The notes beneath the pieces were generated by a model. That model was not told the origin of the DNA, ran no database searches, and was given only the letters and a program-made list of their open reading frames with translations. The position numbers were made by a program, and so were the translations under genes. Below are positions 12,634-44,637 of a stretch of 64,000 bases of DNA, one piece after another (position 1 is the first letter of the stretch; every line of letters begins with the position of its first letter). This DNA is from an uncultured Gammaproteobacteria bacterium (GTDB lineage: Bacteria; Pseudomonadota; Gammaproteobacteria; Steroidobacterales; Rariloculaceae): contig CAWAJM010000001.1 of NCBI GenBank assembly GCA_963782445.1, positions 2,930,666 to 2,994,665 on the forward strand, in the 5' to 3' direction.

Positions 12634-12650
12634 ATACAGAATGCGTGCCA
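12634..12650 (-). promoter_or_regulatory. Sigma-54-type promoter candidate TGGCACGCATTCTGTAT (minus strand) upstream of the GT4-GT2-GT2-kinase-like operon
   Basis: Perfect -24 TGGCAC with correct spacing to the -12 element. The -12 reads TGT instead of TGC. It lies about 80 nt upstream of ATG 12555. Confidence 0.4.
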
Positions 12651-13160
12651 ATCCCCCGGCCCCAGCGCATGCTCGTTCGACATTCAGGAAGTCGTCGATT
12701 GCGGGCACGCCCTCGTTGCGAGCTTCATCGACCCGCGCAGCAAGAGTTGGAAGCCGAGTTGAAAACTTTGGAAGGCGTGCACGCACGCCTTGGGTGTAGT
12801 CTTGAGCGGTGTCCGACCGCGGTCGGAGCGCGGCCCGGGCCCTCGCGGTTTGCTAACGCTTCGGAGACCTTCTCATGCCCACTCAATTCCCTGATACCAA
12901 GAGGGCGTTCGTGACTGCCGCGGAAGCGGGCGCAGCCGCGCAACGCGCCGAGACGGTATCCAGCGAACCGCGCCCGGCCGCGGCCGCAGCTTCCAGCGCC
13001 GCCAACCGTCCCTCCGACGCGGCCGCGCCCGCAACGACGCGCTCGTCACGGCTCGCTGCAAAACTGGAACCGTTCGATTCCTACTGGCAGGCCCCGCGCG
13101 ACGTTCGAGAAGGGCTATCGCTCGTTTCGGGCCTACTACGAACACAACTATCTGCCGCAT

Positions 13161-13775
13161 ATGCCGAGCGAGAAGAATGCCAAGATCCTCGTCGTGAGCT
13201 GCGGTCCCGGCTACCTCGTACATACCCTGCGCGCCGCAGGCTACGCAAACGTCACGGGCATCGACTCCGACGAGACCAAGATCGCCCACGCGCTTCGCCA
13301 CGGCCTTTCGTGCGAGACGGCGCGCGCCTTCGAATACTTGTCGGACCGGGCCGATACATTCGACGCAATCGTCCCGGAGCAGGAACTCAATCACCTGACG
13401 CTGGACGAGCAGATCGAATTTCTGCGGGCCTGCCGCAGAGCGCTGCGCAACGGCGGTCTGCTGCTCGTTTACGGTCTCAACGGGGCCAACCCGCTCGTCG
13501 CGTCCGAAAACCTCGCGCACAACATCGACCACTTCAACACGTTCACGGAATACAGCCTCGGCCAAGTGCTCGCTCTTGCCGGGTTCGCGGATGTGACGCC
13601 GCGCCCGCTCGCGCTCTACGTCTTCTGGAAGAACCCGCTCAACTACGTCGGCCTCGCGTTCACTTGGCTCGCCGAGCTGTTCTTCCGGGTCTCGTACAAG
13701 CTCTACGGTAAAGACGTTAAGATCCTCACGAAGAAGCTCGCGGCCACGGCCTACCGGCGCGACGCACCGGCGTAG
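13161..13775 (+). CDS. Class I SAM-dependent methyltransferase (probably the 3' frame of a frameshifted gene that starts at 12875)
   Basis: 204 aa with SAM motif I (ILVVSCGPGYLVHTL), an acidic loop (GIDSD) and post-I/II motifs. The conserved N-terminal stretch continues upstream in another frame (see finding). Confidence 0.8.
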   Translation: MPSEKNAKILVVSCGPGYLVHTLRAAGYANVTGIDSDETKIAHALRHGLSCETARAFEYLSDRADTFDAIVPEQELNHLTLDEQIEFLRACRRALRNGGLLLVYGLNGANPLVASENLAHNIDHFNTFTEYSLGQVLALAGFADVTPRPLALYVFWKNPLNYVGLAFTWLAELFFRVSYKLYGKDVKILTKKLAATAYRRDAPA

Positions 13776-13944
13776 CGTCGGTACGCCCGGCGGCTCGCTG
13801 CGGGGCATCGGCACGAGAGCGGCAACGACCGCGGCGGGCCGGCGGCCGATGCCTTGGCGGCGGGCTTCCCGAGCCTCCGGCAACTTCCGGGACCCGAACC
13901 CGTTCATGAATCATGCGGCCGACACGGCCGACATGGACGGACGA

Positions 13945-14934
13945 CTAAAGCATCCCGTGCGCCCGATACCACTCGGCCGTGCGGGCGGCTCCGAGTCGAA
14001 ACGGCACGGACGGCGCGTATCCGAGCAGCCGTGCCGCCTTCTCCTGAGAGAACTGGAAGCGCTTAACGAAGAAATCGAGCCGTCGCCGGTGCCAAGGCGG
14101 CGAGACGCCGAACGGCCGGCAAGCGCTTTCGCAGACGACGGCTGCGAGCAGAAACGGCACGAGAGGCAGTCGGATCGCACGCAACGGTTTGCCGAGGGCC
14201 TCGGCCACGTGCTCGATGAAGCGGCGCGTCGGCAGCACCTCGCTGCCGGCGAGAACGATCGTCTCGCCGACCGCCTCCTCGCGCGCCGAAGCGCGCTCGA
14301 GGCCTGCCACGAGATCGTCCACATAGACGGGCTGATGCTCGTTGCGCCCGCCTCCGATGAGCGGCACCACTCCGTCGTTCACGAGCTTGAAGAGCTTGAC
14401 AAGGCGGCCGTCGCCGGGACCGTAGGTTTCCGAGATCCGCACGATCGTGAACGGCAGGCGATCGCCGTAGGACGCCACGACGCGCTCGGCCGCCAGCTTC
14501 GTGATGCCGTAGATATTCTGCGGATCCGGGGTCGATTGCTCGTCGAGCCGGCCGCGCTTGGCGGAGCCGTAGACGCCGATCGTGCTGCCATGCACGAAGC
14601 GCCGCACGTCGGCCGCCGCGGCGGCTTCGAGCAGGTTACGCGTGCCCTCGACGTTCACGGCGTGAAAATAGGCGTCGTCCACGTTGCTCTCGTGCTGAGC
14701 GGCAGCCAGATGGAAGACGGTATCGACGCCCTGCACGAGGCGGGCGAGCAAAGCTCGATCGGCGATGGAGCCGACCTCGACGCCGATACCGGCTTCGGCC
14801 AGCGCCGTGCCCCGCAGCTTCTCGAGCGGCGTGTTCTCGCCGCCGAAGGCGACGACATCGTGGCCGCTCTCGGCCAGCCTCTGCGCAAGTCGCGCGCCGA
14901 TGAATCCGGTCGCGCCGGTAACCAATGCCCTCAT
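13945..14934 (-). CDS. NAD-dependent epimerase/dehydratase (extended SDR)
   Basis: 329 aa. MRALVTGATGFIGARL Rossmann motif and a YxxxK motif (NIYGITKLAAE). Confidence 0.85.
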   Translation of the reverse strand: MRALVTGATGFIGARLAQRLAESGHDVVAFGGENTPLEKLRGTALAEAGIGVEVGSIADRALLARLVQGVDTVFHLAAAQHESNVDDAYFHAVNVEGTRNLLEAAAAADVRRFVHGSTIGVYGSAKRGRLDEQSTPDPQNIYGITKLAAERVVASYGDRLPFTIVRISETYGPGDGRLVKLFKLVNDGVVPLIGGGRNEHQPVYVDDLVAGLERASAREEAVGETIVLAGSEVLPTRRFIEHVAEALGKPLRAIRLPLVPFLLAAVVCESACRPFGVSPPWHRRRLDFFVKRFQFSQEKAARLLGYAPSVPFRLGAARTAEWYRAHGML

Positions 14935-15036
14935 TCTCGTTCTCCCATTCGCGTGCCGGCGCCGCGCCCCGCGTGAGGGCGGAAGCGCTCGGGCACTATT
15001 CCTGGTCGTTGCCGGCCTGACAGGTCGATGCGGCCG

Positions 15037-16773
15037 CTAAGCGCCGACGCCCGCCACGATGCTCGCCGGACCGCCCGTGCCGGTGCCCGCTGCGGGGCGC
15101 TCGACGGTGCCGCCGACCGCAATGCGCTTCTCGACCGCGGCGATCTCCGCCCGGCGCCGTGCCTCGTCCCAGCCGAGCTCGCGGCCGGCAAGCGCGGCAG
15201 CCTCCTCGAGGGCGGCGCTGCCGGGATGGCCGCCGGACGCGAGATCCGTGCGGCGGAACACCACGTCTGCCAGCGTCAGGGCCATCTCCTCGCGGATGGC
15301 GTGCAGCACCTCGGCCTTGAGCGTCGTCGCCCCCGCGAGGCAGCCGGCCGCGTCCCCCTCCGCGAGCGCGAGGACGTCGCGGAACGCCGCGCCGTAGTTG
15401 TGCGCGAGCGCCGCCACGGCGCCCGGCGCGAGATTCAACGGGGCGGCCCGGGCCACGGTGCCGACGAGCCCCTCGAAGGTCTCGAAGTCGCCCCCGTGCA
15501 AAGGGGTGCGGTGCGTCGGGGCGCGCTCGGTCCGCTCGCCGAGCTTGCGGGTCACGAGATCGACGGCCGTCGCCGCATCGGCACGCGCCATCGTATAGCG
15601 CACGCCGATGAGGCTGACGAGATTGTCGAGCCCGTGCTCGGCCCGGTGATCGATCACGTGCGAGTGCTTACCGTAGCGCAGATCCTCGGCACCGGGCTCG
15701 TTGTCCCCGAAGGGCAGCAGCCCCGCGTTCCACATGGTCACGTCGCTCGGCTCGAGGCCGAGCGACGGCAGGGCCTCGTTGATCTCGTCGATGAAACCGG
15801 CGATCTCGCGCTCCCCGACTCTAACGCGGTCCGGCGGTTCGCTCCAGACGCGGTGCCATACGCCGCAAAGCGTGTACTGCCGCCAGGGCGTGAGAAACAG
15901 ATGCCGGGCCGAACGGCTCAGGACGGCGTCGGGGTCGCGCGTGCGCGCCGGCAGGGCCACGCCGTAATCGTGCGCGAAACGGCGGCGCACGAGAAAACAC
16001 GCGTCGCGCGAAAACGGGCCGTTCGAGCGCAGCGGCGTCCCTTCGTGCTCGGCCATGAACCACGGCACCCAAGGCCCGGCGGCGTTGAGCACGGCACGCG
16101 CGCGCACCTCGTAGTGCTCGCCCGAGATCTCGTCGCGGACCTCGGCGCCGACGACGGTCGTGTCCGCGCGCAGCAGGCGCAGCGCAGCCGCATGGTTCAA
16201 GGCGACAGCACCGTTCTCGACGGCCGAGCGCACGAACGCCAGCACGAGGCGCGTGGGGTTGTACATCTGACCGTCGCAGAACACGGCGCCGCCCGTGAGC
16301 GCTTGCCCCGGCATGCCCGGAAACAGCTCGGCGACCGTCCCCGCGTCGAGAAAGCGCGTCAACGGAACGTGACGGCTGCGGTCCCGAATCCGCAAATTTC
16401 TATCTGCCGTCAAGGCATCGTAGGCAAGCATTCCCGCCCCCAGAAACGGCTTGCCGCGGCGCCCGCGTCCGTACGTCGGAATTACGACGGGCACCGGTTC
16501 GACGAGATGCGGTGCAATCCTGAGCAGCGCGCTGCGCTCGTGGCTGCTGCGTCTGAGGCGGCCGAGATCGAGATGCTGCAAATAGCGGATCCCGCCATGC
16601 ACGAATTTATACGAATTCGCGGACGTGCCGGCGCCGAAGTCGAGCCGTTCGACCAGGGCGACCGAAAGTCCGCGCAGCGTCGCGTCCCAGGCGGCGCACG
16701 CGCCGAAGATACCGCCCCCGATCACGAGCAGATCGAAGGCCCTGTCTTCCAATATCCGACTCTCTCTTTGCAT
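15037..16773 (-). CDS. FAD-dependent oxidoreductase, glycerol-3-phosphate dehydrogenase/oxidase-like (GlpD/GlpO family)
   Basis: 578 aa. DLLVIGGGIFGACAAWDATLRGLSVALVE dinucleotide fold followed by GTSANSYKFVHGGIRYL, plus a long C-terminal helical domain. Confidence 0.8.
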   Translation of the reverse strand: MQRESRILEDRAFDLLVIGGGIFGACAAWDATLRGLSVALVERLDFGAGTSANSYKFVHGGIRYLQHLDLGRLRRSSHERSALLRIAPHLVEPVPVVIPTYGRGRRGKPFLGAGMLAYDALTADRNLRIRDRSRHVPLTRFLDAGTVAELFPGMPGQALTGGAVFCDGQMYNPTRLVLAFVRSAVENGAVALNHAAALRLLRADTTVVGAEVRDEISGEHYEVRARAVLNAAGPWVPWFMAEHEGTPLRSNGPFSRDACFLVRRRFAHDYGVALPARTRDPDAVLSRSARHLFLTPWRQYTLCGVWHRVWSEPPDRVRVGEREIAGFIDEINEALPSLGLEPSDVTMWNAGLLPFGDNEPGAEDLRYGKHSHVIDHRAEHGLDNLVSLIGVRYTMARADAATAVDLVTRKLGERTERAPTHRTPLHGGDFETFEGLVGTVARAAPLNLAPGAVAALAHNYGAAFRDVLALAEGDAAGCLAGATTLKAEVLHAIREEMALTLADVVFRRTDLASGGHPGSAALEEAAALAGRELGWDEARRRAEIAAVEKRIAVGGTVERPAAGTGTGGPASIVAGVGA

Positions 16774-16889
16774 CGCAATTTATTCCAAAGGATGGGAAAT
16801 CATTCCATGTTTTTCAAAGCGCTCCCGCACCTATCACACCTCGCAAACGACTCTGCTAAGCTCGAAACGAGTCGAATTCAACGCAGCCG

Positions 16890-17615
16890 ATGAACGGAAA
16901 AGCGCAACTGGATACGAGCATGAAAAGCATTCTTCTTGTTACCGCCGACACCCCCTCTGCAACTGCCGTACCGCTCCGCAGGCGCGCGCGCCACGGCGCC
17001 GGCCCGGCGCTCGCTGCACTCGTCATTCTGGGCGCAGCCTTGGCAGCCGGGCCGGGCACCGCGCTCGCCCAGCGCAAGGCCCGCGCGGCGGCCGCCGCGG
17101 CCAACCCGGCGCCCGCGACCGCCGAGGACGCAGGCGGGTACAAGGTCCAGCCCGGCGACATGCTGCACGTCTCCGTCTGGAAGGAGGACGGGCTGGACCA
17201 GGACGTGCTCGTGCGCCCCGACGGCGGCTTCTCCTTTCCCCTGGCCGGCGATGTCAGCGCCGCGGGCAAGACCGTCGCCGAGCTGCGCCAGGAGATCACG
17301 CAGCGGCTGCAACACTACATCCCCGGCCTCGTCGTGACGGTCGCGGTCAAGGAAATCAACGGCAACAAGGTTTACGTCATCGGCCAAGTCAACAAACCGG
17401 GCAGCTTCGTCATGAACCCGCGGGTCGACGTCATGCAGGCCTTGAGTATCGCCGGCGGTACGACGGCGTTCGCCTCTACGGGCGATATTTTCGTTCTCCG
17501 CCGCCAGAATGGCAGGCAAGTTGCACTGCCGTTCTCGTACAACGACGTTGTGCGGGGGAAGAACCTCCAGCAGAACATCTTGTTGCAGAGCGGCGACGTA
17601 GTGGTCGTGCCCTAG
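16890..17615 (+). CDS. Short polysaccharide export (OPX/Wza-like, EpsE-type) periplasmic protein
   Basis: 241 aa. Signal peptide, Poly_export region (YKVQPGDMLHVSVW..VRPDGGFSFPLAGDVSAAGKTVAELRQEI) and an SLBB-like part (VYVIGQVNKPGSF). There is no C-terminal OM-spanning helix domain. An alternative start is ATG 16920. Confidence 0.85.
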   Translation: MNGKAQLDTSMKSILLVTADTPSATAVPLRRRARHGAGPALAALVILGAALAAGPGTALAQRKARAAAAAANPAPATAEDAGGYKVQPGDMLHVSVWKEDGLDQDVLVRPDGGFSFPLAGDVSAAGKTVAELRQEITQRLQHYIPGLVVTVAVKEINGNKVYVIGQVNKPGSFVMNPRVDVMQALSIAGGTTAFASTGDIFVLRRQNGRQVALPFSYNDVVRGKNLQQNILLQSGDVVVVP

Positions 17616-19366: not shown

Positions 19367-19379
19367 GAGACAGCTCAGG

Positions 19380-22840: not shown

Positions 22841-22857
22841 GAGCAAAGTCCGTGCCA
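22841..22857 (-). promoter_or_regulatory. Sigma-54 promoter TGGCACGGACTTTGCTC (minus strand) upstream of the AsnB-family gene
   Basis: Strict match to TGGCAC-N5-TTGC; intergenic, about 130 nt upstream of ATG 22714. Confidence 0.65.
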
Positions 22858-24739: not shown

Positions 24740-24756
24740 ATGCAAAGATGATGCCG
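24740..24756 (-). promoter_or_regulatory. Sigma-54 promoter candidate CGGCATCATCTTTGCAT (minus strand)
   Basis: GG and GC dinucleotides at the correct 12-nt register, about 80 nt upstream of ATG 24663. It shares CATCTTTG with the motif at 27099-27115. Confidence 0.55.
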
Positions 24757-24897
24757 TACGTGGAACTTACCTGGTAGGGGACTTGTCGACGGCAAGCGCC
24801 GCTCGCATCGCACACACTTTCCAGATGCTGGAATTCGCCGCGGGGTTGCGGCCCGGGGCGATCGCCCCGAGGCGGAGGCCGTCCAAGGCAACTCGCT

Positions 24898-27098: not shown

Positions 27099-27115
27099 AT
27101 ACAAAGATGGTGCCA
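27099..27115 (-). promoter_or_regulatory. Sigma-54 promoter candidate TGGCACCATCTTTGTAT (minus strand) upstream of the GT-C gene
   Basis: Perfect -24 with correct spacing; the -12 reads TGT rather than TGC. It lies between the flippase stop and the GT-C start. Confidence 0.45.
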
Positions 27116-28739: not shown

Positions 28740-28756
28740 CGGCACTCGTCTTGCAA
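28740..28756 (+). promoter_or_regulatory. Sigma-54 promoter candidate CGGCACTCGTCTTGCAA
   Basis: GGCAC-N6-TTGCA in the correct register, 38 nt upstream of ATG 28792 (GAGGGG RBS). Confidence 0.55.
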
Positions 28757-28791: not shown

Positions 28792-29763
28792 ATGAGAACC
28801 TTGAAGTACGCAGCGAAGTGGTCGCTGTGGCGTGCCTGCCCGGGCGTGTTCGCCGCTCGCGCGCCGAAGGCCGCGCGCCGTTACTCCGTCGCCATTTACT
28901 CGGGACCGTCGCCTTTCGAGCTGCGCCCTGCCGCCGGCGCCCGCAATCCGGTCCTCGCGCCGGCGCAGGTCACGGACGTCCCCGCGTCCATGGTGGCCGA
29001 CCCATTCCTCTTGCGGGCCGACGGCCGTTGGCATTTGTTCTTCGAGGTTCTCAACCGTCTGTCCTGGAAGGGCGAAATCGCCTACGCGACCAGTGACGAC
29101 GGGCTCAGCTGGACCTACCGCGGCCTCGCCCTCGTCGAGCCCTTTCACTTGTCGTACCCGCAGGTCTTCGCGTGGCGCGGCGACTTTTACATGATTCCGG
29201 AAAGCGGCCGGGCCCGCGCGGTGCGCCTCTACCGCGCGCGGCGCTTTCCGACGGGCTGGCGGCGGGCCGCCACCTTGCTCGACGGTGCCCGCTTCGCCGA
29301 CAGCTCCGTGTTCCGGCACGAGGGGCGCTGGTGGATGTTGACGGATGCCGGGGACGACGCCGCTCACCCGCTTTTGCGCCTTTTCCACGCCCCCGAGCTC
29401 GCCGGCCCCTGGCGGGAGCACCCGGCGAGCCCGATCGAGGACAACGTTCTGACGGCCAGGCCCGCCGGCCGCGTCGTCGTCCACGACGGTACGCCGGTGC
29501 GCTTCGCGCAGCCGGTCTATCCCGAATACGGCGCGGAAGTGAGGGCATTCGCGATCACCGTATTGACGCCCACGCGCTATGAAGAGCGCGCCGTCGCCGG
29601 CCCGCCCTTGCTCGGGCCCGGGCAATTCGCCTGGAACTCCGGGGGGATGCATCACGTCGACCCTCACCTGCTGGAAGACGGCAGTTGGTTCGCCGCGGTA
29701 GACGGTTTCGAGTTTTTGATGGGGCCCCCAATAGCCGCCATGGGCATCTGCCCGACTCATTGA
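28792..29763 (+). CDS. Five-bladed beta-propeller (GH43/GH32-like; GINT1 N-terminal-domain-like) protein of unknown function
   Basis: 323 aa. The MVADPFLLRADGRWHLFFE..., ATSDDGLSWTY, FYMIPES, WWMLTD and HHVDP blade-like repeats resemble the family often annotated as glucosamine inositolphosphorylceramide transferase-like. Confidence 0.6.
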   Translation: MRTLKYAAKWSLWRACPGVFAARAPKAARRYSVAIYSGPSPFELRPAAGARNPVLAPAQVTDVPASMVADPFLLRADGRWHLFFEVLNRLSWKGEIAYATSDDGLSWTYRGLALVEPFHLSYPQVFAWRGDFYMIPESGRARAVRLYRARRFPTGWRRAATLLDGARFADSSVFRHEGRWWMLTDAGDDAAHPLLRLFHAPELAGPWREHPASPIEDNVLTARPAGRVVVHDGTPVRFAQPVYPEYGAEVRAFAITVLTPTRYEERAVAGPPLLGPGQFAWNSGGMHHVDPHLLEDGSWFAAVDGFEFLMGPPIAAMGICPTH

Positions 29764-29778
29764 GCAAGGAGCATGCCA
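29762..29778 (-). promoter_or_regulatory. Orphan sigma-54 promoter motif TGGCATGCTCCTTGCTC (minus strand), antisense to the 3' end of the propeller gene
   Basis: Strict consensus match that overlaps the stop codon of 28792..29763. No credible minus-strand gene lies downstream. Confidence 0.35.
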
Positions 29779-29786
29779 ACGTCGAC

Positions 29787-29818: not shown

Positions 29819-29819
29819 C

Positions 29820-29839
29820 TCCAAGAATTGCTATCGGAT
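29820..29839. repeat. 20-bp perfect direct repeat copy 1 (TCCAAGAATTGCTATCGGAT)
   Basis: Identical 20-mer recurs at 30383-30402. Its reverse complement resembles the 5' coding end of the GT-C gene (...CTAAGCAATTCTCCG...). Confidence 0.85.
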
Positions 29840-29865
29840 AGCAAAAAGTCCTGCGGGCGCGTAGG

Positions 29866-30475: not shown

Positions 30476-30492
30476 TGGTATGGAAATTGAAT
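30476..30492 (+). promoter_or_regulatory. Sigma-54-like promoter candidate TGGTATGGAAATTGAAT
   Basis: Correct GG/-12 register, 37 nt upstream of TTG 30526. The -12 reads TTGA (C to A). It resembles the TGGCATGCAAATTGCTT family in the locus. Confidence 0.35.
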
Positions 30493-33043: not shown

Positions 33044-33077
33044 AAGCTCACACTGCGTAAACCGTGCGCCGGTTCAC

Positions 33078-34427: not shown

Positions 34428-34441
34428 TGCCGAGCCGCCCG

Positions 34442-36987: not shown

Positions 36988-37116
36988 AGAGCCTCCTGCC
37001 CCCCGGATCGAGGTCCCGTTCGGCGCGCGTCCGCTCGCCCGAACGAAACGAATGGCTGCGAGGCGACGTATTATCGGCCACGGGAAGAATTGTTGTTTGG
37101 ACCTGCGGAACGGGCG

Positions 37117-37133
37117 GTGCAAATTGCATGCCA
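37117..37133 (-). promoter_or_regulatory. Sigma-54 promoter TGGCATGCAATTTGCAC (minus strand) for the GT4-GT4-wzy-GT4 operon
   Basis: Strict consensus match in the divergent intergenic region, about 130 nt upstream of ATG 36987. Confidence 0.7.
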
Positions 37134-37347
37134 CGGGCGGCAGCACTCCTGTCGTTGCGCTCTGCCGCGAGGAGCCCGAGGCCGCGGCCTCCCGGATTTG
37201 CTGTTCCGCCTTGCAAAACTTGTAAGTGTCGCAATGCCTCCGGCGCCGCCTCCACTATCGTTCCGTTCCCGGAGCTTTCCTGAATAGCGTTTTGCTGCGG
37301 GCACTGCCATCGGGTCCCGGTTGGCGCACGATCGGCCGGGCCGCCCA

Positions 37348-37364
37348 TGGCATGCAAATTGCTT
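37348..37364 (+). promoter_or_regulatory. Sigma-54 promoter TGGCATGCAAATTGCTT for the priming glycosyltransferase gene
   Basis: Strict consensus match, nearly identical to the motifs at 37117-37133 and 44621-44637. It overlaps the first ATG (37347) of the track ORF, so the real start is further downstream. Confidence 0.7.
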
Positions 37365-38828: not shown

Positions 38829-40027
38829 GCGCCGTCGGCTGCCGCCGGTCCGACCGCTGCCACGGGGGAGCGACCGGCGCGCGCTTCGAGGCCGAGCAAA
38901 GCCGCGACGCGGTCGATAGCCGCCGTCGAGTGGCGCTCGATCGCATACGTGCGGGCCCGCTCGCCGATTTCCTTCCGCAGCCTCGAGCACTCGAGCAGGT
39001 GACGCAGGGCCTGCGCAAGCCCTTGCTCGTCGTTCGCAACACGGCCGAAACCGCTTTGGCTCAACAGGCCGTCCGGGTCGACGTGCAGGCTGACCACCGG
39101 CACCCGGCGCATCCAAGCCTGGATGAACGTGTTGGAAAACCCTTCGTAGTCGCTCGTATTCACGAGCACGTGCGCCCGCTCGAGAAGTCTACCGACCTCC
39201 TCCTGACGTTGCACGCCGAGATAGTCGACGTTCGGGGCGGCGCTGATGGCAGCCATGACCTCGTCGAGCCAGCGCCCTCGCCCTCCTGCAGCGCCGACCA
39301 TGACGAAGCGCACGTCCTCCCGGGCCTCGAACTGCTTGGCCAAGCGCACGAAGGCGGCAGGGTTCTTCAATGGCTTGAAATTGGCTATCCAGACCACCTC
39401 GAGGGGCGACGCCGGCTTCTCCGCGCTCCCGTCGACAGGCGGCACGGGATGAAAGTTCGGCACGACGAGTGCATCGGAACGCCCGAAGTTGGCCGCGAGC
39501 TCCGCCTTCTGAGTCTCGGTCTGGGCAAGAATCAAATCGGCATGCTCTATTCCATACTCCAGGAAACGCTGCTCGATGGCGTAGTGCAACCGCGCCCACT
39601 GCACTCGTTGGCGTCGCACGCTGCGATCGCTCGTGACCCGCCATACCATGCGCGCGCCGTTGCGGCGGGCATAGTGAGCAGCGATGCCCGTGTATGCACA
39701 GCCGACTTGCTGATAGATGATATCCGGCCGTACCTGCACAAGCGCCGAGTAGAGCCTGCGGACGTTGAAAAACAGCCCGTAACGGCGAATCCCGCCGAGC
39801 GTAGAGAACTTGACGATGCGGTAACCATGCGGCTCGAAGCCCGGGGCCGTACGGGCGGCCAGGAAGTACAGCTCGGCCTCGTATCGCTCGAGCAGATGTT
39901 CGATAAGGAGCTTCGCCTGGTACTGGGAGCCGCCCATCACTGCGGCCCAATGCGTCGGCAGCACGACACAGACTCTTGGGACGCGCCGGGCCGGCGTGCC
40001 GGTCGAGGCCGGGGCCGTGTCAGGCAC
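38822..40027 (-). CDS. Glycosyltransferase family 4 (GT-B)
   Basis: 401 aa. RVCVVLPTHWAAVMGGSQYQ N-terminus and NTSDYEGFSNTFIQAWMRRVPVVS. Its 3' end overlaps the convergent PGT gene by 7 bp. Confidence 0.85.
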   Translation of the reverse strand: MPDTAPASTGTPARRVPRVCVVLPTHWAAVMGGSQYQAKLLIEHLLERYEAELYFLAARTAPGFEPHGYRIVKFSTLGGIRRYGLFFNVRRLYSALVQVRPDIIYQQVGCAYTGIAAHYARRNGARMVWRVTSDRSVRRQRVQWARLHYAIEQRFLEYGIEHADLILAQTETQKAELAANFGRSDALVVPNFHPVPPVDGSAEKPASPLEVVWIANFKPLKNPAAFVRLAKQFEAREDVRFVMVGAAGGRGRWLDEVMAAISAAPNVDYLGVQRQEEVGRLLERAHVLVNTSDYEGFSNTFIQAWMRRVPVVSLHVDPDGLLSQSGFGRVANDEQGLAQALRHLLECSRLRKEIGERARTYAIERHSTAAIDRVAALLGLEARAGRSPVAAVGPAAADGAQ

Positions 40028-40820
40028 AGCCGAACCTCAACGCCAGCGCGCAGGCCCGCTCGTACACCGGCCGGCAAAGCTCATCGACACGCTCCGCCTG
40101 CCGCCCGCTCCATGGCTCACGCTTGGCCGAGCGCGTGTGGATGGTCTCGAGCAGTTCGCTCCGGTAGGGCAGATCCGCAAAACGCAGCAGGGCCGGGATC
40201 GACGCTTCTTTGTTCAAGACCATGTCATTGTACTCGACAACCAACAGTCTATTCTCCGGCAGTCGACCGGCGAGCTCGAACGTCTGCGCGGTCTTTGCAG
40301 AATAGGCCGCGCACGCCTTGTCCAACGACGACTGCCACAGGGCCCGGGCGGCCCGCAACGCGCCGCCGCTCGTGGGCGATTCCCGGCCGCAGGCGTTGTA
40401 GAGCCTGCGCAGGGCCGCCCGGGACCAATTGTTCAGCATCGAATGCACAACGGCTCTCGGCTCCCTGACAATCCAAAGGAGGCGAAAATTGCCGTGCTCG
40501 AAATACTCGAAGACCCGATCGTTGAGATATGTAGTTTGGAAGCACGGCCTCCCCTCGAGCGGCAATTCCGCATAGCCGCAAAGGAGCAGCGCGGCGTCGA
40601 GCTCGTCGTCGACTCCAAAACGATGGTCGGCAACGCCTTCGGCCTTCGAGAGCATGCGCGCGACGGCCGTTGTCCCGGAACGTTGGCATCCGGCCACGAG
40701 AAGGGGGTCGGGATAGCGCTCGAGCTCGCCGAGCAGCTTCCTGCCGGGCTTTACGCAGCGGTGAAATCGGGCCCACGACTCGACTTTCGGGCCCCGCCAT
40801 ACGACCTTCTCGTTCTGCAT
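40020..40820 (-). CDS. Sulfotransferase-family protein (PAPS-dependent type)
   Basis: 266 aa from ATG 40820 (MQNEKVV). 5'-PSB loop LVAGCQRSGTTAVARML and a 3'-PB-like WIVREPRAVVHS. The longer track ORF (to 41024) would include the sigma-54 promoter and is rejected. Confidence 0.75.
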   Translation of the reverse strand: MQNEKVVWRGPKVESWARFHRCVKPGRKLLGELERYPDPLLVAGCQRSGTTAVARMLSKAEGVADHRFGVDDELDAALLLCGYAELPLEGRPCFQTTYLNDRVFEYFEHGNFRLLWIVREPRAVVHSMLNNWSRAALRRLYNACGRESPTSGGALRAARALWQSSLDKACAAYSAKTAQTFELAGRLPENRLLVVEYNDMVLNKEASIPALLRFADLPYRSELLETIHTRSAKREPWSGRQAERVDELCRPVYERACALALRFGCA

Positions 40821-40862
40821 CTGGTTTGGTGTGTTTCGGATTCGCTGTCGACCGCGCCATTT

Positions 40863-40879
40863 CTGCAAATTTCGTTCCA
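40863..40879 (-). promoter_or_regulatory. Sigma-54 promoter TGGAACGAAATTTGCAG (minus strand) for the sulfotransferase-GT4 unit
   Basis: GG-N10-GC register is correct and the -12 is TTTGCA. It lies 45 nt upstream of ATG 40820. Confidence 0.6.
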
Positions 40880-41219
40880 GCTCGACCAGCGCGCAAGTCG
40901 GCGCTCTGCCCCGCCGGCGGCGGTCAGTTCCAACGGTGCGAATCTTCCATGATCCGATGCCCGGCGAATTCGGAAACTGTCTCCATTTGCCGACTGTTGA
41001 CCCGCAGGGTCGACTCATCGACACTCCTTCTCACACCGAGGGCAGACCCATCGAAAGGTGGGGACGCAAAACCACGGGTCTAACGCGAGCACATCGCTAT
41101 GATCGCCGGGTTGCAGGGTTTCGTAGTCGAATGCCTCAGGCCATCGCCATGCGGGGCCATTGCAGTCCTGGATTCTCGCAGTGCTCTTCCTAACGGGCAT
41201 CACGGCAAAGGATTGAAGT

Positions 41220-42728
41220 ATGGCGATGCGAAACCTTCTCGCTTGTCTCTTACTGAGCTTTGCGGTCTATGCAAATGGATACGCAGCCACCTACTACGTG
41301 CGCAACGGTGGCGACGATTCGGCCGACGGCAAGAGCCCCGCTACGGCATGGGCGACGATCGGCAAAGTCAATTCGCATTCCTTCTCGGCGGGCGACTCGG
41401 TACTGTTCCATGAAGGCGACACATGGACCGGCGCTACGCTCGGGATAGGCTGGTCCGGGACGAGCTCCAAGCAGGCCGTGATCGGCGCCTACTACGTCGA
41501 CGCCGGACAACCGCAAACGGGATTTCGTACCAGGCGGCCGACCATCGACGGCCAGAAGAAGTATCCGTCGTCGCACTATGCGCCGCTTGTGGAGGTCAAG
41601 GGCGATAACGTCCGCGTCCAGGATCTCGCGATCGTAAACTCTCAGGGTCGCGGGATCGTGTTCGATTCGGTCTCCGACGACCATGCCGTGAACCTCGTGC
41701 TCTCGAGCATCTATGACGGCTCGATCAAGTTCCTGACATGCTCCGGTTGCCTCGCCGAGGGCAATACGGTATCGGATTCGGACCGGGTCTGGCCCGAAGC
41801 TCACAAGACTTGGTCAGCTGCGATCTCTGCGAACGGTTCCTCGAACGTCGTCATCCGCGGGAACAATGTCATTCACGAGTACGGTGAAGGCATCAACGTC
41901 TTCGGCGGCAGCAAGAACTCGATCATCGAGCACAATTACCTGTTCGGGGTCCGCGCGGTCGGAATCTATTCCGACGGGGCTCCCAGCACCACCATCCGGT
42001 ACAACATTGTGGTGGGCGCGAACGATTCCAGGTTCTGGAGGAACGGGAAGGCATCCGGCGCGGGCATCGCCCTAAACAACGAAAGCTATCACTATGCGGG
42101 CCATGGCGGCTCGCAGAGCACGAGCGTTCAGTCAAAGAACGCCAAGATATACGGCAATCTCGTTGCTTATACCAACGACGGCATCGCCATCTGGGGTCAG
42201 CTCGACGGCTCGAGCTTCGACAACACCATGATCTACAACAACACGCTGGTTGACAACGACGTTCAGTTCGCGAGCCTGGACAATAGACCGATGCCGAATT
42301 CGCAGTTCATGAACAACATCCTCATGAGCATCAGCTCGGGAACGGCGGACGTGAATTCGTCCAGCCTCTCCGGGTTAGTTGCGAAGAATAACTACTTCAG
42401 CCAGGGCGACCCGGGCGGAACGTTTTCGAGCTCCGGCAACGTATATAAAGGCCTCCAGCTCGCGCGCATGAGCGGATGGCGCAGCGTAACGGACCCTGCA
42501 AGCGTCAGTTGGCGGGATTTCCAGATTGCGCCCGGCGGCTCGACGATCGGCGCAGGCAATTCGACGCCGCTCAAGAACGCGACCGCCAACGATTCCTACA
42601 ACATGGACTTCAACGGAAAACCGCACAATCGGCCGCCCGACATGGGAGCCATCCGCTTCGGCACTCTGAAGCGCGTCCCGGGAACGCCGTCCGGTCTCAC
42701 GGCCACCAGTTCCGCCGGCACGACCTGA
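41220..42728 (+). CDS. Secreted right-handed parallel beta-helix repeat protein (polysaccharide lyase/epimerase/hydrolase-like), paralogue 1
   Basis: 502 aa. Signal peptide, ATYYVRNGGDDSADGKSPATAWATIGKV N-cap and repeated beta-helix rungs (VRVQDLAIVNSQGRGI, VIRGNNVIHEYGEGINV, IIEHNYLFGVRAVGIY). Confidence 0.75.
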   Translation: MAMRNLLACLLLSFAVYANGYAATYYVRNGGDDSADGKSPATAWATIGKVNSHSFSAGDSVLFHEGDTWTGATLGIGWSGTSSKQAVIGAYYVDAGQPQTGFRTRRPTIDGQKKYPSSHYAPLVEVKGDNVRVQDLAIVNSQGRGIVFDSVSDDHAVNLVLSSIYDGSIKFLTCSGCLAEGNTVSDSDRVWPEAHKTWSAAISANGSSNVVIRGNNVIHEYGEGINVFGGSKNSIIEHNYLFGVRAVGIYSDGAPSTTIRYNIVVGANDSRFWRNGKASGAGIALNNESYHYAGHGGSQSTSVQSKNAKIYGNLVAYTNDGIAIWGQLDGSSFDNTMIYNNTLVDNDVQFASLDNRPMPNSQFMNNILMSISSGTADVNSSSLSGLVAKNNYFSQGDPGGTFSSSGNVYKGLQLARMSGWRSVTDPASVSWRDFQIAPGGSTIGAGNSTPLKNATANDSYNMDFNGKPHNRPPDMGAIRFGTLKRVPGTPSGLTATSSAGTT

Positions 42729-42740
42729 GCGTCACCGTCA

Positions 42741-42767
42741 CCGGACGGCGCCGCACGCGCCGTCCGG
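42741..42767 (+). terminator. 11-bp perfect GC hairpin (CCGGACGGCGC-CGCAC-GCGCCGTCCGG) just after beta-helix gene 1; no U-tract
   Basis: Read directly; lies 13 nt after the stop codon. Confidence 0.45.
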
Positions 42768-43031
42768 CGGCGCATTCCGAGCACGTTGTCGTCGTTCGAC
42801 GACAATTGACCTTCGCTGTGCTACTCGTCACACTCCTTCGCCACCGCGGCCGGCACGCGGCACAGCCAGCCCGCCGCCCCGGCATCTTGTCCGAGCGTCA
42901 TCGCCGCGACGTAGCCCAACCAGGAAGTAAACCGCAAGTTCCAAGGTCCAAAGGTCCGGGGCTTGACCGGGGCAATCGTGTTCGCGGGCGAGCCGCGCTC
43001 ATCGAGTGGCATCCAGCCATGAGGGTCACGA

Positions 43032-44528
43032 ATGTATCCACGAATCGCACTCGGATTGGTCCTGGCATTGTCTCTTTCCGGCGCCTCTCGGGCCGCGACA
43101 TACTACGTGCGCCACGGCGGCGACGACTCGGCGGACGGCCTCAGCCCCGCCACGGCGTGGGCGACCTTGACCAAAGTCAGCTCCCACTCGTTCTCCGCGG
43201 GAGACAGCGTGCTGCTACACGAGGGCGATACATGGACCGGCCAAACGCTCGAAGTCGATTGGTCGGGCAAGAGCTCGAAGGAAGCCGTCGTCGGTGCCTA
43301 CTACATGAACGGTAGCCAGCCGGAGATCGGCTATCGCACGGCTCGTCCGACTTTGGACGGCCAGAAGAAGGTTCCATCCAGCCAATACGCCGCGATGGTG
43401 ACGGTCAAAGGGGATTGGATACGCGTCCAGGATCTCGCTATCGCAAACTCGGAAGGCCGCGGCATTTTGTTCGACGGCGTCTCGTCGGGGCAAGCCGTAG
43501 ACCTGCTGATATCGGCGGCCTTCGACGGCTCCATCAAATTCATGGATAGCCGGAACGGGCTGGCGGCCGGCAACACCATCACGGGCTCCGACAGGGTATT
43601 TCCCGAGACCGGTCGCGTCTGGTCCGCCGCGATCTCGGCCGGTCGCTCGACCGGCACGATCATCCGTGGCAATAACATCCTCGGGGACTACGGCGAAGGC
43701 ATCAACGTCTTCGAAAACAGCAGCGACTCTCTCATTGAACGCAACTACTTGTACGGCGTACGCGCCGTCAGCATCTATGCCGACGCCGCCCCGTCCACCA
43801 CCATTAGGTACAACATGGTTGTCGGGACGACCGATCGGCAGTTCTGGCGCAGTGCCGATTCCGTCGGCGCCGGCATCGCCCTGAACAACGAAAGCTACCA
43901 CTACCAGGGTCACGGCGGCACGTTGAGCAGCGGCGTGCAGTCGACGCACGCCAAGATATACGGCAACCTCGTGGCCTACACGAGCAGCGGTATCGGCATT
44001 TTCGGTCAGCTAGAGAACTCGCGCTTCGACGGCACGCTAATCTACAACAACACGTTAGTCGACAACGACGTTCAATTCGCGTTACTTACGGCTAATGTCC
44101 CATTGCCGAACTCGCAGTTCATCAACAACATTCTCCTGAGCCTGTCGCCCGGCACTAAGGACGTTAACGTCTCCTCGCTGAATGGCATGGTCGCGAAGAA
44201 CAATTACTTCAGCCAGGGCGATCCAGGCGGCGACTTCTCGAGCGCGGGCAACCGATATGACGGCATCGAGCTCGTCAAGATGACCGGCTGGCGAAGCGTC
44301 AAAGATTCCAAGGCATTGAGTTGGCGGGATTTCCAAGTCAAACCCGGGGCCTCGACGATCGGCGCAGGCGACGACACGCCGCGCACCAAGGCCACCAAGG
44401 CCGACACCTACAACGTCGACTACAACGGCAAGGCCTTTGGCGAACCGCTCGACATGGGCGGCTTGCGATTCGACTCTCTCCACCATGTTCCTGGCAGCCC
44501 GGGCGGGCTCAGTATCACGGCGCAATGA
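43032..44528 (+). CDS. Secreted right-handed parallel beta-helix repeat protein, paralogue 2
   Basis: 498 aa, colinear with 41220..42728 along the full length (ATYYVRHGGDDSADGLSPATAWATLTKV..., IIRGNNILGDYGEGINV, LIERNYLYGVRAVSIY, LIYNNTLVDNDVQFA). Confidence 0.75.
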   Translation: MYPRIALGLVLALSLSGASRAATYYVRHGGDDSADGLSPATAWATLTKVSSHSFSAGDSVLLHEGDTWTGQTLEVDWSGKSSKEAVVGAYYMNGSQPEIGYRTARPTLDGQKKVPSSQYAAMVTVKGDWIRVQDLAIANSEGRGILFDGVSSGQAVDLLISAAFDGSIKFMDSRNGLAAGNTITGSDRVFPETGRVWSAAISAGRSTGTIIRGNNILGDYGEGINVFENSSDSLIERNYLYGVRAVSIYADAAPSTTIRYNMVVGTTDRQFWRSADSVGAGIALNNESYHYQGHGGTLSSGVQSTHAKIYGNLVAYTSSGIGIFGQLENSRFDGTLIYNNTLVDNDVQFALLTANVPLPNSQFINNILLSLSPGTKDVNVSSLNGMVAKNNYFSQGDPGGDFSSAGNRYDGIELVKMTGWRSVKDSKALSWRDFQVKPGASTIGAGDDTPRTKATKADTYNVDYNGKAFGEPLDMGGLRFDSLHHVPGSPGGLSITAQ

Positions 44529-44620
44529 ACAGGTGGAGAATTTCCAGCATTTGGAATGAGCGCCGCCGACTCAGGGCGCGCAAGCCGCCGCGGCGATAGG
44601 AGACCGCGCGCCGGAACCAG

Positions 44621-44637
44621 TGGCATGCAACTTGCTT
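44621..44637 (+). promoter_or_regulatory. Sigma-54 promoter TGGCATGCAACTTGCTT for the OM beta-barrel gene
   Basis: Strict consensus match 37 nt upstream of ATG 44674. It overlaps the first ATG (44620) of the track ORF, which is therefore rejected as the start. Confidence 0.7.

Follow-up and report, generated by a model that had tools for sequence, protein, structure and literature searches.

The -24/-12 motifs of an exopolysaccharide (EPS) locus are most probably genuine RpoN (sigma-54) promoters, which would split the locus into many separately promoted units. The window, which is the whole 64-kb stretch of DNA that was analysed, contained the Wzx/Wzy-type locus at ~7.6-46 kb (~35 kb), composed of many short, often divergent units. 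As judged from the sequence, at least six of these very probably have a sigma-54 promoter of their own: WcaJ, the GT/polymerase operon, the amidotransferase, the sulfotransferase operon, the PMT_2-type glycosyltransferase, and the outer-membrane beta-barrel. Four to five further locus units carried weaker candidates, and three neighbouring stress/storage units (csbD, yqjD-like, and glgC) also appeared to have a sigma-54 promoter. We infer the sigma-54 dependence, the transcription start sites, the activator, and the role of an upstream dyad as its binding site.

Motif excess in non-coding DNA

The strict pattern TGGCAY-N5-TTGC occurred eight times in the 64 kb against 0.13 expected, and none of 100 shuffled windows (mean 0.13) reached eight matches, in agreement with the estimate of an earlier sequence-only reading that it should occur well under once by chance. 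That reading had counted seven strict matches; all seven were present, and an eighth, 6511(-) TGGCATGGAAATTGC, had been missed. The eleven motifs it listed were all found again at the right position and strand. Six of the eight strict sites were followed by a gene, as it had described.

Looser patterns behaved differently. The bare GG-N10-GC register was uninformative, with 1368 occurrences against 1367 expected in the window. With up to two mismatches allowed, 67 sites were found against 59 expected, which is no excess across the whole window; therefore, the weaker listed sites were not acceptable by sequence alone. They were rescued as a class because of their position. Using a sigma-54 weight matrix, which was our approximation of the published consensus and not a curated one, 14 matches of at least 11.5 bits were found in non-coding DNA (5.7 kb, 9% of the window) against 0.48 expected, a ~30-fold excess. 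The corresponding values were 11 against 0.16 at 13 bits or more, and 7 against 0.014 at 15 bits or more. Coding DNA gave nine matches against 4.1 expected. That the motifs arise by chance or from the composition of a genome with 66% G+C, with which the count of the bare register agrees, is effectively refuted by the shuffles, the non-coding excess, and the conservation of the motifs in relatives.

Promoter assignments and start codons

The predicted features of the EPS locus were as follows.
22841..22857 (-): sigma-54 promoter TGGCACGGACTTTGCTC, strict match, 17.8 bits; AsnB-like amidotransferase gene AsnB1 (20792-22714; N-terminus MCGIVG), 127 nt to its ATG 22714
37117..37133 (-): sigma-54 promoter TGGCATGCAATTTGCAC, strict match, 18.0 bits; operon 31832-36988 with four genes (GT4, GT4, Wzy-like, GT4), 129 nt to ATG 36988
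37348..37364 (+): sigma-54 promoter TGGCATGCAAATTGCTT, strict match, 18.0 bits; priming glycosylphosphotransferase gene WcaJ 37425-38828 (TIGR03023, 489 bits, above the cut-off of 410.75)
40863..40879 (-): sigma-54 promoter TGGAACGAAATTTGCAG, 15.7 bits; sulfotransferase-GT4 operon 38822-40820 (Pfam Sulfotransfer_3 match), 43 nt to ATG 40820
44621..44637 (+): sigma-54 promoter TGGCATGCAACTTGCTT, strict match, 18.0 bits; outer-membrane beta-barrel gene 44674-45978, 37 nt to ATG 44674, where the signal peptide begins
27099..27115 (-): probable sigma-54 promoter TGGCACCATCTTTGTAT, 12.8 bits, non-canonical -12; PMT_2-type membrane glycosyltransferase gene (PMT2) 24898-26997
24740..24756 (-): candidate sigma-54 promoter CGGCATCATCTTTGCAT, 13.0 bits; second AsnB-like gene 22909-24663, 77 nt to its in-frame ATG 24663
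28740..28756 (+): candidate sigma-54 promoter CGGCACTCGTCTTGCAA, 13.2 bits; 36 nt before ATG 28792 of the GINT1_N-family gene 28792-29763
30476..30492 (+): weak candidate TGGTATGGAAATTGAAT, 11.8 bits, no -12 GC; 34 nt before TTG 30526 of the GT4 gene 30526-31797
12634..12650 (-): weak candidate TGGCACGCATTCTGTAT, 11.8 bits, no -12 GC; 79 nt before ATG 12555 of the GT4-GT2-GT2-kinase operon 7598-12555
16958..16973 (-): possible embedded promoter CGGTACGGCAGTTGCA, 12.6 bits, within signal-peptide codons of a Wza-like gene; divergent GlpD-like/SDR operon 13945-16773
41031..41118 (+): c-di-GMP-I riboswitch aptamer (Rfam RF01051), leader of the beta-helix gene pair 41220-44528

Sites outside the locus and orphan sites were the following.
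50584..50600 (+): predicted sigma-54 promoter TGGCACGGCCCTTGCAC, strict match, 17.8 bits; csbD-like gene 50635-50835, 35 nt to its ATG, with ribosome-binding site AAGGAG
53647..53662 (-): probable sigma-54 promoter TGGCATGGTTTTCGCA, 14.1 bits, intergenic; yqjD/yqjE/yqjK-like operon 52522-53597, 49 nt to its start
55276..55292 (+): sigma-54 promoter-like site TGGCACACAGCTTGCTT, strict match, 17.6 bits; glgC 55581-56858, 289 nt downstream; the site lies in the 369-nt region that separates glgC from a divergent M48 peptidase gene (start 55211)
6495..6511 (-): strict match TGGCATGGAAATTGCGT, 14.7 bits, no downstream gene; directed at the malate synthase gene 4242-6422, whose terminator hairpin and 3' end it faces
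29762..29778 (-): orphan strict motif TGGCATGCTCCTTGCTC at the 3' end of a pseudogene

Among the 16 units of the locus, five had a strong, conserved motif, one had a weak yet conserved motif, four had weak candidate motifs (two without the -12 GC), one had its motif within coding sequence, and five had none. The claim that almost every transcription unit is preceded by a motif was thus too strong, with six of the 16 units backed by strength and/or conservation. Separate gating of export by sigma-54 was unsupported because the Wza-Wzz-kinase export operon and the flippase were among the units without a motif.

Twelve of the 13 individually classified intergenic matches faced a gene start 34-289 nt away, and in co-directional gaps all six (22857, 24756, 27115, 44621, 50584, and 53662) lay on the strand of the downstream gene. 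The leaders were 34-129 nt long to the revised start codons, with glgC at 289 nt. The start codons used for leader lengths were fixed independently through the N-termini of homologues. The conserved N-terminus M-A/G-x-x-Y-Y/F-K places the start of WcaJ at TTG 37425, and in the closest relative a stop codon interrupts the frame upstream of this start. The outer-membrane protein and sulfotransferase starts were revised to ATG 44674 and ATG 40820, and the earlier rejection of 37347, 44620, and 41024 was sound in all three cases.

It is possible, and on balance unlikely, that promoter function is limited to the strong, conserved sites (five to six in the locus, with csbD, glgC, and yqjD-like) and that 12650, 30476, 28740, 24756, and 16973 resemble the consensus by chance. 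In that case, a handful of units in the locus would depend on sigma-54, a number comparable to syp (below), and the other units would be under sigma-70 or other control. The GC of the -12 element is near-invariant in sigma-54 promoters, and it was absent from 27115, 12650, and 30476. The lack of a window-wide excess at two mismatches and the similar scores of weak matches in coding DNA (13182, 8769, 10560, and 42152) also agree with this reading. Against it, seven intergenic matches of 11.5-15 bits were found where composition-matched shuffles gave ~0.46, all co-oriented with a start codon 34-102 nt away, a position support that depends partly on our chosen start codons. Furthermore, the weak PMT2 site was conserved as an isolated island, and 24756 had a perfect upstream dyad at a distance like that of the strong 44621 promoter.

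Conservation of the motifs in relatives

The window was compared with four related genomes of reshuffled gene order (L001-L004, L004 being chromosome OY969712.1). The host is an uncultured soil or water gammaproteobacterium related to Steroidobacteraceae. Despite rearrangement, the WcaJ, AsnB1, sulfotransferase, PMT2-like, Wzy-like, and yqjD-like genes each kept their own motif. WcaJ was preceded by a motif of 17-18 bits in all four closest relatives, 89-109 nt before the start of the tblastn match; the spacers varied, whereas the -24 and -12 blocks were kept. In L002, L003, and L004, which provide three distinct genomic contexts, each AsnB1 orthologue was preceded by a motif of its own. In L001, the sulfotransferase orthologue had TGGAATGGAAATTGCAC, which shares the unusual TGGAAY -24 element of 40879(-). 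The Wzy-like orthologue in L004 was preceded by TGGCATACAAATTGCAA, and the yqjD-like orthologues in L002 and L003 by TGGCACGCTTTCTGCAC. The 27115(-) motif was the sole conserved island (20 nt, GGTTGGCAYCATCYTTGWAT) in a PMT2 intergenic region otherwise unalignable with L004. For the GT4 gene 30526-31797, a 39%-identical L004 homologue had the strong motif TGGCACGTGGCTTGCAT. Around 16973(-), a 25-nt block was perfectly conserved in L004 while its neighbours varied, for which coding constraint is a possible cause. Distant homologues (up to 59% identity), serving as a negative control, had no motif, and for the GINT1_N-family gene only distant homologues were found, all without one.

It is very improbable that the motif belongs to another DNA-binding protein or to a dispersed repeat or mobile element merely resembling the sigma-54 consensus. 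The spacer GCAAn was shared by 37133, 37348, and 44621, but the flanks were unrelated, none of the sites was covered by a repeat family of at least 24 nt, and orthologous spacers differed around preserved blocks. In addition, the motif was asymmetric and strictly oriented toward genes, and an enhancer-binding protein (bEBP) was encoded nearby. The description of the promoters as near-identical thus held for closeness to the consensus and failed for shared ancestry.

The density was indeed unusual, as the earlier reading had proposed: none of 76 other WcaJ-containing loci (1.32 Mb) had more than one strict match, compared with eight in this window and four in 21 kb of the closest relative. The high density is thus lineage-specific.

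Activator, upstream dyad, and regulatory model

49184..50515 (+): bEBP gene; receiver domain, sigma-54 AAA+ domain with GSFTGA loop, and HTH

No second bEBP copy was found within the 64-kb window, as the sequence-only reading had noted. The protein was 87-89% identical and syntenic in L001-L003. It scored 324 bits with NCBIfam NtrC and 303 bits with PrsR, each under its cut-off (502.6 for PrsR). The rpoN gene was absent from the window; it is expected elsewhere in the genome, given that the sigma-54 interaction domain of the bEBP is intact.

The analogy with PEP-CTERM/PrsR loci was not borne out: every PEP-CTERM-associated NCBIfam match was under its cut-off, and no exosortase match was found among the genes scanned. 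The locus was thus not demonstrably of that type and was a Wzx/Wzy-type EPS cluster. A general role of sigma-54 in controlling EPS and the cell exterior has been described (PMC3162934). The closest precedent was the Vibrio fischeri syp locus, which has four sigma-54 operons and the activator SypG (PMC10162802); the present locus would follow this established kind of regulatory architecture at a higher promoter density, without a new mechanism.

No single upstream element common to all promoters was found. A 15-bp dyad, TTCCA-N5-TGGAA, first noticed by eye and then tested, had 27 matches at up to two mismatches against 9.8 expected, and lay 25-200 nt upstream of 11 of 30 promoters against 1.1 expected. 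It was located 56-130 bp upstream of a subset of EPS promoters, with perfect copies 72 nt upstream of 44621(+) (TTCCAGCATTTGGAA) and 70 nt upstream of 24756(-) (TTCCAGATGCTGGAA), and was absent at the AsnB1, PMT2, GINT1, csbD, glgC, and yqjD-like promoters. The dyad is a candidate activator site.

In the proposed model, sigma-54 holoenzyme would wait in a closed complex at every promoter, and transcription would begin only once an ATP-hydrolysing enhancer-binding protein acts. The locus would be silent by default and activated together or in subsets. The neighbouring bEBP could have the csbD and yqjD-like promoters as its targets instead of those of the locus. During rearrangement of the locus, each promoter apparently moves with its gene as a cassette.

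Many of the motifs could bind the holoenzyme unproductively, as roadblocks, sources of antisense or pervasive transcripts, relics, or inert sites. Three strong matches lay inside coding sequence (29778, 49185, and 17510) against 0.13 expected, two strict matches had no downstream gene (6511 and 29778), and L002 and L003 had back-to-back orphans, 20318(+) and 20362(+). At least the match at 49185, which lies on the bEBP start codon, looks like a coding coincidence. Such binding is improbable as an account of many sites: most strong sites were at canonical distance upstream of start codons and followed their genes through rearrangements, as promoters would, unlike incidental binding sites.

The 29778(-) site, reported earlier as an orphan, indeed had no gene downstream, and a transcript from it would run antisense to 28792-29763. 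The adjoining ORF 29757-30344 was a truncated, internally deleted, and frameshifted PMT_2 gene copy, with 82% nucleotide identity to 24965-25387 over 423 nt and a 47-nt piece matching 26379-26425. The motif aligned with the AsnB1 promoter located after PMT2 in L004, and the site is probably a relic promoter.

Units without a sigma-54 motif would be under other control. One of them, the beta-helix gene pair, had the c-di-GMP-I riboswitch instead, whose aptamer scored 75.8 bits (E = 4e-13), the Rfam gathering score being 35.

Sigma-54 motifs and their placement

The strict sigma-54 pattern, TGGCAY-N5-TTGC, was present eight times on the two strands of the 64-kb window, against 0.13 expected and a maximum of two in dinucleotide-preserving shuffles. 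The shuffle mean agreed with the sequence-only reading, which had placed the chance expectation well below one per 64 kb. That reading had counted seven strict matches, all of them correct, and had overlooked the eighth, 6511(-). The eleven -24/-12 motifs that it had listed in the polysaccharide locus were all recovered at their positions and strands. The strict matches followed the extended consensus TGGCAC-N5-TTGCW, with the GG and GC elements 10 nt apart. Looser searches of the window gave no excess, either for the bare GG-N10-GC register (1368 observed, 1367 expected) or for TGGCAC-N5-TTGC with up to two mismatches (67 observed, 59 expected). The register alone was therefore no evidence, and the weaker sites at 12650, 24756, 27115, 28740, and 30476 were not acceptable by sequence alone.

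Both strands were also scored with a 16-position sigma-54 weight matrix, which was an approximation of the published consensus TGGCACG-N4-TTGCW and not a curated model. Seven sites reached 17.6–18.0 bits on this approximate matrix. The comparison of intergenic with coding matches that had been proposed earlier was run on the window, and the excess was found mainly in the non-coding DNA, which amounted to 5.7 kb (9%, 64.8% G+C). The weak class was enriched as well: at 11.5–15 bits, seven intergenic matches were found where about 0.46 were expected.

Matrix matches in the window, observed and expected from shuffles
Non-coding, at least 11.5 bits: 14 observed, 0.48 expected
Non-coding, at least 13 bits: 11 observed, 0.16 expected
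Non-coding, at least 15 bits: 7 observed, 0.014 expected
Coding, at least 11.5 bits: 9 observed, 4.1 expected

A start codon was faced at a distance of 34–289 nt by 12 of the 13 intergenic matches examined singly, and all six matches in co-directional gaps lay on the strand of the downstream gene. The non-coding status of 24756 and 27115 hinged on rejecting long N-terminal ORF extensions, whose translation was rich in Arg and Pro and unlike real protein. The -12 GC was absent in three weak candidates (27115, 12650, and 30476).

An origin of the sites in a repeat or mobile element was rejected, as none of them was covered by a repeat family, direct or inverted, of at least 24 nt. The motifs had been called near-identical; as copies of one another they did not hold up, since their flanks were unrelated and their likeness reflected closeness to the consensus. 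The spacers differed between orthologous sites. The original observation was confirmed, and the division of the exopolysaccharide (EPS) locus by multiple predicted sigma-54 promoters is well supported by the statistics and by phylogenetic footprinting.

Gene map, transcription units, and start codons

Because the window has a G+C content of 66.4% and spurious long ORFs were abundant, genes were mapped from codon-position G+C and family searches. The region from 7.6 to 46 kb was a Wzx/Wzy-type EPS locus, in which candidates for the priming enzyme, flippase, polymerase, exporter, and chain-length/tyrosine-kinase pair of the pathway were all present. Several matches in the locus were under equivalog cut-offs, so that the roles are family-level assignments.

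Wzx/Wzy pathway components of the locus
WcaJ priming transferase (37425–38828): TIGR03023, 489 bits, above the cut-off of 410.75
MurJ/Wzx-like flippase: E = 3e-37
Wzy-like protein: multi-helix membrane protein, no family match
Wza-like exporter: E = 9e-40
Wzz domain and tyrosine autokinase: E = 5e-44

The other genes of the locus encoded GT4 and GT2 glycosyltransferases, an acetyltransferase, a methyltransferase, two AsnB-like amidotransferases (AsnB1 and AsnB2), a sulfotransferase, a PMT_2-type membrane glycosyltransferase (PMT2), a GINT1_N-family protein (GINT1), two tandem beta-helix paralogues, and a beta-barrel outer-membrane protein. To the right of the locus lay an encapsulin/ferritin operon with a CAAX protease and a histidine kinase, followed by an NtrC-class enhancer-binding protein (bEBP, 49184–50515), and beyond it csbD, an AI-2E transporter gene, a yqjD/E/K-like operon, an M48 peptidase gene, and glgC-glgX.

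Sixteen transcription units were counted between 7598 and 45978, and candidate motifs were assigned to the following units.

Candidate sigma-54 motifs by transcription unit
Strong and conserved motif (5 units)
22857(-): AsnB1 (20792–22714)
37133(-): GT4-GT4-Wzy-GT4 operon
37348(+): WcaJ
40879(-): sulfotransferase-GT4
44621(+): outer-membrane protein (44674–45978)
Weak but conserved motif (1 unit)
27115(-): PMT2 (24898–26997)
Weak candidate (4 units)
24756(-): AsnB2 (22909–24663)
28740(+): GINT1 (28792–29763)
30476(+): GT4, without the -12 GC
12650(-): GT4 operon, without the -12 GC
Candidate inside coding sequence (1 unit)
16973(-): SDR/GlpD-like operon, within a perfectly conserved 25-nt block

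At least six promoters were supported between 22.8 and 44.6 kb. No motif was found for the remaining five of the 16 units, namely the methyltransferase, the Wza-Wzz-kinase-acetyltransferase export operon, the flippase, a pseudogene, and the beta-helix pair. The earlier statement that almost every transcription unit carries a motif was thus too strong, and the separate gating of every step was unsupported, as the export operon was without a motif. A sigma-70 consensus scan of 27–46 kb gave two sites against 3.3 in shuffles, fewer than chance, and hence no alternative promoters for the motif-less units.

The 600-nt stretch at 12556–13160 contained no convincing gene and no Rfam match; in it, the weak motifs 12650(-) and 12630(+) overlapped as a near-palindrome, TGGCACGCATTCTGTATACCA. 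Within the last part of the Wza-like coding sequence, 125 nt ahead of the Wzz-like gene, a 15.4-bit match at 17510–17525(+) was identical in the related genome L004 and may therefore be an internal promoter. A 16.1-bit match at 49185–49200(+) was rejected as a promoter; it overlapped the start codon of the bEBP gene (MARVLL), decayed to TTGT in the relatives, and is probably a coding coincidence.

The three start-codon corrections made in the earlier reading, for WcaJ, the outer-membrane protein, and the sulfotransferase, were upheld. The WcaJ homologues shared the N-terminus M-(A/G)-x-x-Y-(Y/F)-K, starting from TTG in the window (37425) and in L001–L003 and from ATG in L004, and an in-frame stop separated the motif from the start ATG in L004. 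On both grounds the ATG at 37347, which overlaps the motif, was not the start. The outer-membrane protein started at ATG 44674 with a signal peptide, the sulfotransferase at ATG 40820, AsnB2 at 24663, and AsnB1 at ATG 22714 with the canonical MCG N-terminus. The alternative starts 24678 for AsnB2 and 40802 for the sulfotransferase were discarded, as neither position was a start codon. The motifs correct several start codons and supply operon boundaries for the annotation of an uncultured lineage.

Conservation in relatives and putative relic promoters

A WcaJ scan of the genome collection supplied the relatives and assigned the window to an uncultured lineage of Gammaproteobacteria close to Steroidobacteraceae. 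Four genomes, L001–L004, were informative (WcaJ identity 72–76%). L004 was a complete MAG chromosome (OY969712.1) with an AsnB1 identity of 90%. Gene order varied among them. AsnB1 was divergent from WcaJ in L002 and L003, and the sulfotransferase operon was divergent from WcaJ in L001. The order in L004 was Wza-Wzz-kinase, AsnB1, PMT2, sulfotransferase-like, WcaJ, flippase-Wzy, and GT4. Despite the differing order, the genes of WcaJ, AsnB1, the sulfotransferase, PMT2, and the Wzy-like and yqjD-like proteins each kept their own motif in one or more of L001–L004.

Motifs upstream of orthologous genes
WcaJ, L001: TGGCATGCACGTTGCAT
WcaJ, L002 and L003: TGGCATGTCGATTGCAT
WcaJ, L004: TGGCACGCAACTTGCTG
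AsnB1, L002 and L003: TGGCATGAGTCTTGCTC
AsnB1, L004: TGGTACGTTCCTTGCTC
Sulfotransferase, L001 and window: TGGAATGGAAATTGCAC and TGGAACGAAATTTGCAG, with a rare -24 variant common to both
Wzy-like, L004: TGGCATACAAATTGCAA
yqjD-like, L002 and L003: TGGCACGCTTTCTGCAC

The weak PMT2 site, GGTTGGCAYCATCYTTGWAT, was the sole conserved island in an otherwise unalignable intergenic region. For the weak site 30476, the L004 homologue (39% identity) carried a strong motif. No such motif was found upstream of homologues of 59% identity or less, and a GINT1_N metagenome scan returned only homologues of at most 56% identity, none with a sigma-54 motif upstream. These motif-free distant homologues served as a negative control and show that arbitrary promoter regions do not trigger the matrix.

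In L001–L003, the outer-membrane protein gene directly followed WcaJ and was without its own motif, whereas in the window six genes were inserted between the two and the outer-membrane protein gene had its own predicted promoter. This contrast fits a pattern of one promoter per separated unit. The density had been called unusual, and the wider comparison agreed: eight strict matches were present in the 64 kb of the window and four in 21 kb of L004, against 20 in a further 76 loci centred on WcaJ, which span 1.32 Mb and come mainly from Burkholderiales and Steroidobacteraceae, with a maximum of one per locus. Among these loci, the dense array of putative promoters is specific to this lineage.

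The strict motif 29778(-), for which no downstream gene had been found, was located just past a pseudogene (29757–30344, minus strand), a truncated, internally deleted copy of PMT2 with a frameshift at its 3' end. The pseudogene matched 24965–25387 with 82% nucleotide identity over 423 nt, together with a 47-nt piece of the 5' part of PMT2, a pattern that indicates the internal deletion, and shared 7 nt with the 3' end of the GINT1_N-family gene convergent to it. In L004, the AsnB1 promoter occupied the matching place after an intact PMT2, and its sequence, shown in the list of motifs, was similar to that of 29778(-), TGGCATGCTCCTTGCTC. The site is read as the putative remnant of a duplicated segment that comprised PMT2, the promoter, and asnB. 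Any transcript that it still produces would run antisense across 28792–29763 toward the flippase gene.

The other strict match without a downstream gene, 6495–6511(-), pointed at the hairpin that terminates the malate synthase G gene; it possibly gives rise to a small RNA or a short antisense transcript, or is a chance match. Motifs on opposite strands were also placed back to back, 19–25 nt apart, in L002 (20293(-)/20318(+)), L003 (20337(-)/20362(+)), and L004 (8771(-)/8790(+)); in the L002 and L003 pairs, the plus-strand motif had no gene to drive. The gap between the GlpD-like and Wza-like genes (16740–16870) was almost identical to 970–1100 of L004, whereas the other intergenic regions were unalignable. 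It contained two adjacent TTCCA-type half-dyads (16783–16797 and 16803–17) and might encode an RNA not recognised so far or serve as a regulatory region of some complexity.

Activators, riboswitches, and known systems

Sigma-54 promoters without an activator are silent. The only bEBP in the window, as had been noted, was 49184–50515, which contained a receiver domain, an AAA+ domain with a GSFTGA loop, and an HTH; the window contained no rpoN gene. The bEBP was 87–89% identical and syntenic in L001–L003 and directly preceded the csbD promoter, and its targets may be the stress units and not the EPS locus. It was rejected as PrsR, scoring 303.4 bits against the cut-off of 502.6 for the equivalog TIGR02915, with NtrC-type models equal or better.

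An unbiased search of 180-nt stretches ahead of 13 promoters, for dyads of near-exact 5-mers with spacers of 0–12 nt, found none that was convincing in at least three promoters, and the top results were GC-rich noise. By this search, no single upstream activating sequence was common to all promoters. One dyad, TTCCA-N5-TGGAA, was first spotted by eye and tested afterwards. Perfect copies were found at three places.

Perfect TTCCA-N5-TGGAA dyads
24819–24833, 70 nt upstream of 24756(-)
44542–44556, 72 nt upstream of 44621(+)
Between the divergent L004 promoters 14468(-) and 14593(+), 60–65 nt from each

Dyads with one or two mismatches lay upstream of 37133/37348 (at 37211–37225), 40879, 30476, 12650, and the L004 WcaJ promoter. 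Allowing up to two mismatches, 27 copies were present window-wide against 9.8 expected, and 11 of 30 promoters had one at 25–200 nt upstream against 1.1 expected. The dyad was absent upstream of the AsnB1, PMT2, GINT1, csbD, glgC, and yqjD-like promoters. Because the pattern was defined after looking, its role as a candidate activator site is hypothetical; if real, its restriction to a subset would imply more than one activator.

The beta-helix pair (41220–42728 and 43032–44528), which has no sigma-54 motif, was preceded by a c-di-GMP-I riboswitch aptamer at 41031–41118(+) (RF01051, 75.8 bits) in the leader of its first gene. The same DNA is also upstream of the divergent 40879(-) promoter. 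A second riboswitch, a c-di-GMP-I-GGC variant at 6621–6703(+) (RF03167, 68.8 bits), preceded a lipoprotein gene (6833–7570) with He_PIG and fibronectin-III domains. At permissive thresholds, Rfam gave only these two riboswitches and no family in the glgC leader, 12556–13160, or the orphan 6511. The candidate dyad and the two riboswitches offer handles on the signals that control the biofilm matrix in these environmental bacteria.

Control of EPS and the cell exterior by sigma-54 is well established (PMC3162934; PMC5552954 for bep). The closest precedent in working principle is the syp locus of Vibrio fischeri, described in PMC10162802 (citing Yip 2005 and Ray 2013) as 18 genes in four sigma-54 operons that all depend on the enhancer-binding response regulator SypG; the window locus falls outside that family. 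Both are polysaccharide or biofilm loci in several operons, with a sigma-54 promoter for each operon in syp and for several in the window. However, the gene content of the window locus is unrelated (Wzx/Wzy-type, amidotransferases, sulfotransferase, and PMT_2-type glycosyltransferase), its promoters number at least six and possibly 11 rather than four, and many of its units are single-gene and divergent. The window locus also has a c-di-GMP riboswitch on one unit and no internal bEBP, the nearest being 3.2 kb outside, behind the encapsulin operon. The SypG enhancer, TTCTCANNNTGMDW, had one match in the window against 4.4 expected, and it was upstream of no promoter.

PEP-CTERM/exosortase EPS systems with PrsK/PrsR have a 'PEP-CTERM box', and their sigma-54 motif is accompanied by a presumed activator site 32–92 nt upstream (Haft 2006, PMC1569441). 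The window locus resembles them in having proteobacterial EPS-associated genes behind a sigma-54 motif, with many single-gene units and long intergenic regions. In those systems the sites precede PEP-CTERM protein genes, whereas in the window they precede biosynthetic enzymes. The PEP-CTERM/PrsR analogy that had been drawn (Haft 2006, PMC1569441; PMC9850573) did not carry over. All XrtA-associated models were under their cut-offs (TIGR03027, 136 against 180 bits; TIGR03018, 150 against 231; TIGR03108, 472 against 817; TIGR03013, 219 against 393), no exosortase matched among the locus genes scanned, and no PEP-CTERM tail was found on the secreted window proteins inspected.

The bep cluster of Burkholderia cenocepacia, as outlined in PMC5552954 and PMC9684580, is controlled by RpoN and the c-di-GMP-binding bEBP BerB. 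It is likewise a sigma-54-dependent EPS cluster tied to c-di-GMP signalling, but in the window locus the c-di-GMP link is a riboswitch on one unit and not a demonstrated c-di-GMP-binding activator. The 'bacterial exterior' regulon of Francke et al. 2011 (PMC3162934) ties sigma-54 promoters in different phyla to the biosynthesis of EPS, LPS, and the cell envelope; that work sets out a broad tendency and describes no locus this promoter-dense and no promoter-gene cassettes kept through rearrangement.

What is new is that the arrangement exceeds syp in density and modularity, includes a c-di-GMP riboswitch, and is specific to one lineage. A tentative and rather doubtful reading is that the EPS genes of this lineage form self-contained cassettes, in which a sigma-54 promoter is paired with a single gene or a small group of genes and which would be shuffled, duplicated, or lost with enhancer control retained. 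Relic promoters would mark the rearrangements, and distinct upstream dyads (TTCCA-N5-TGGAA in one subset) would let different activators, jointly with a c-di-GMP riboswitch, set amidation, sulfation, and extra sugars unit by unit. The mechanism itself holds nothing unexpected; the promoter-gene cassettes and the relic promoter are noteworthy for specialists and testable. If confirmed by transcription, few known biosynthetic clusters would have enhancer-dependent promoters arrayed as densely as this locus, which would be a natural test of tuning the composition of a surface polymer, beyond its amount, via individual enzyme units. It would also show how regulatory architecture survives heavy rearrangement of gene order, because each gene has its own promoter.

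Several observations concerned the neighbouring genes. At 55212–55580, the 289-nt glgC leader followed a sigma-54-like site, and sigma-54 control of glycogen synthesis, so near to the EPS locus, might couple storage to matrix formation. The operon at 46178–48862(-), between the EPS locus and the bEBP and syntenic in L001–L003, encoded a sensor-less histidine kinase, a CAAX-type protease, an encapsulin-associated ferritin, and a family 1 encapsulin shell protein. The ferritin gene of L001 was preceded by a sigma-54-like motif, CGGCATGGAAATTGCTT. The convergent gap between the outer-membrane protein and encapsulin genes contained a 48-nt inverted repeat (45966–46149), with arms 83% complementary and 88 nt apart.
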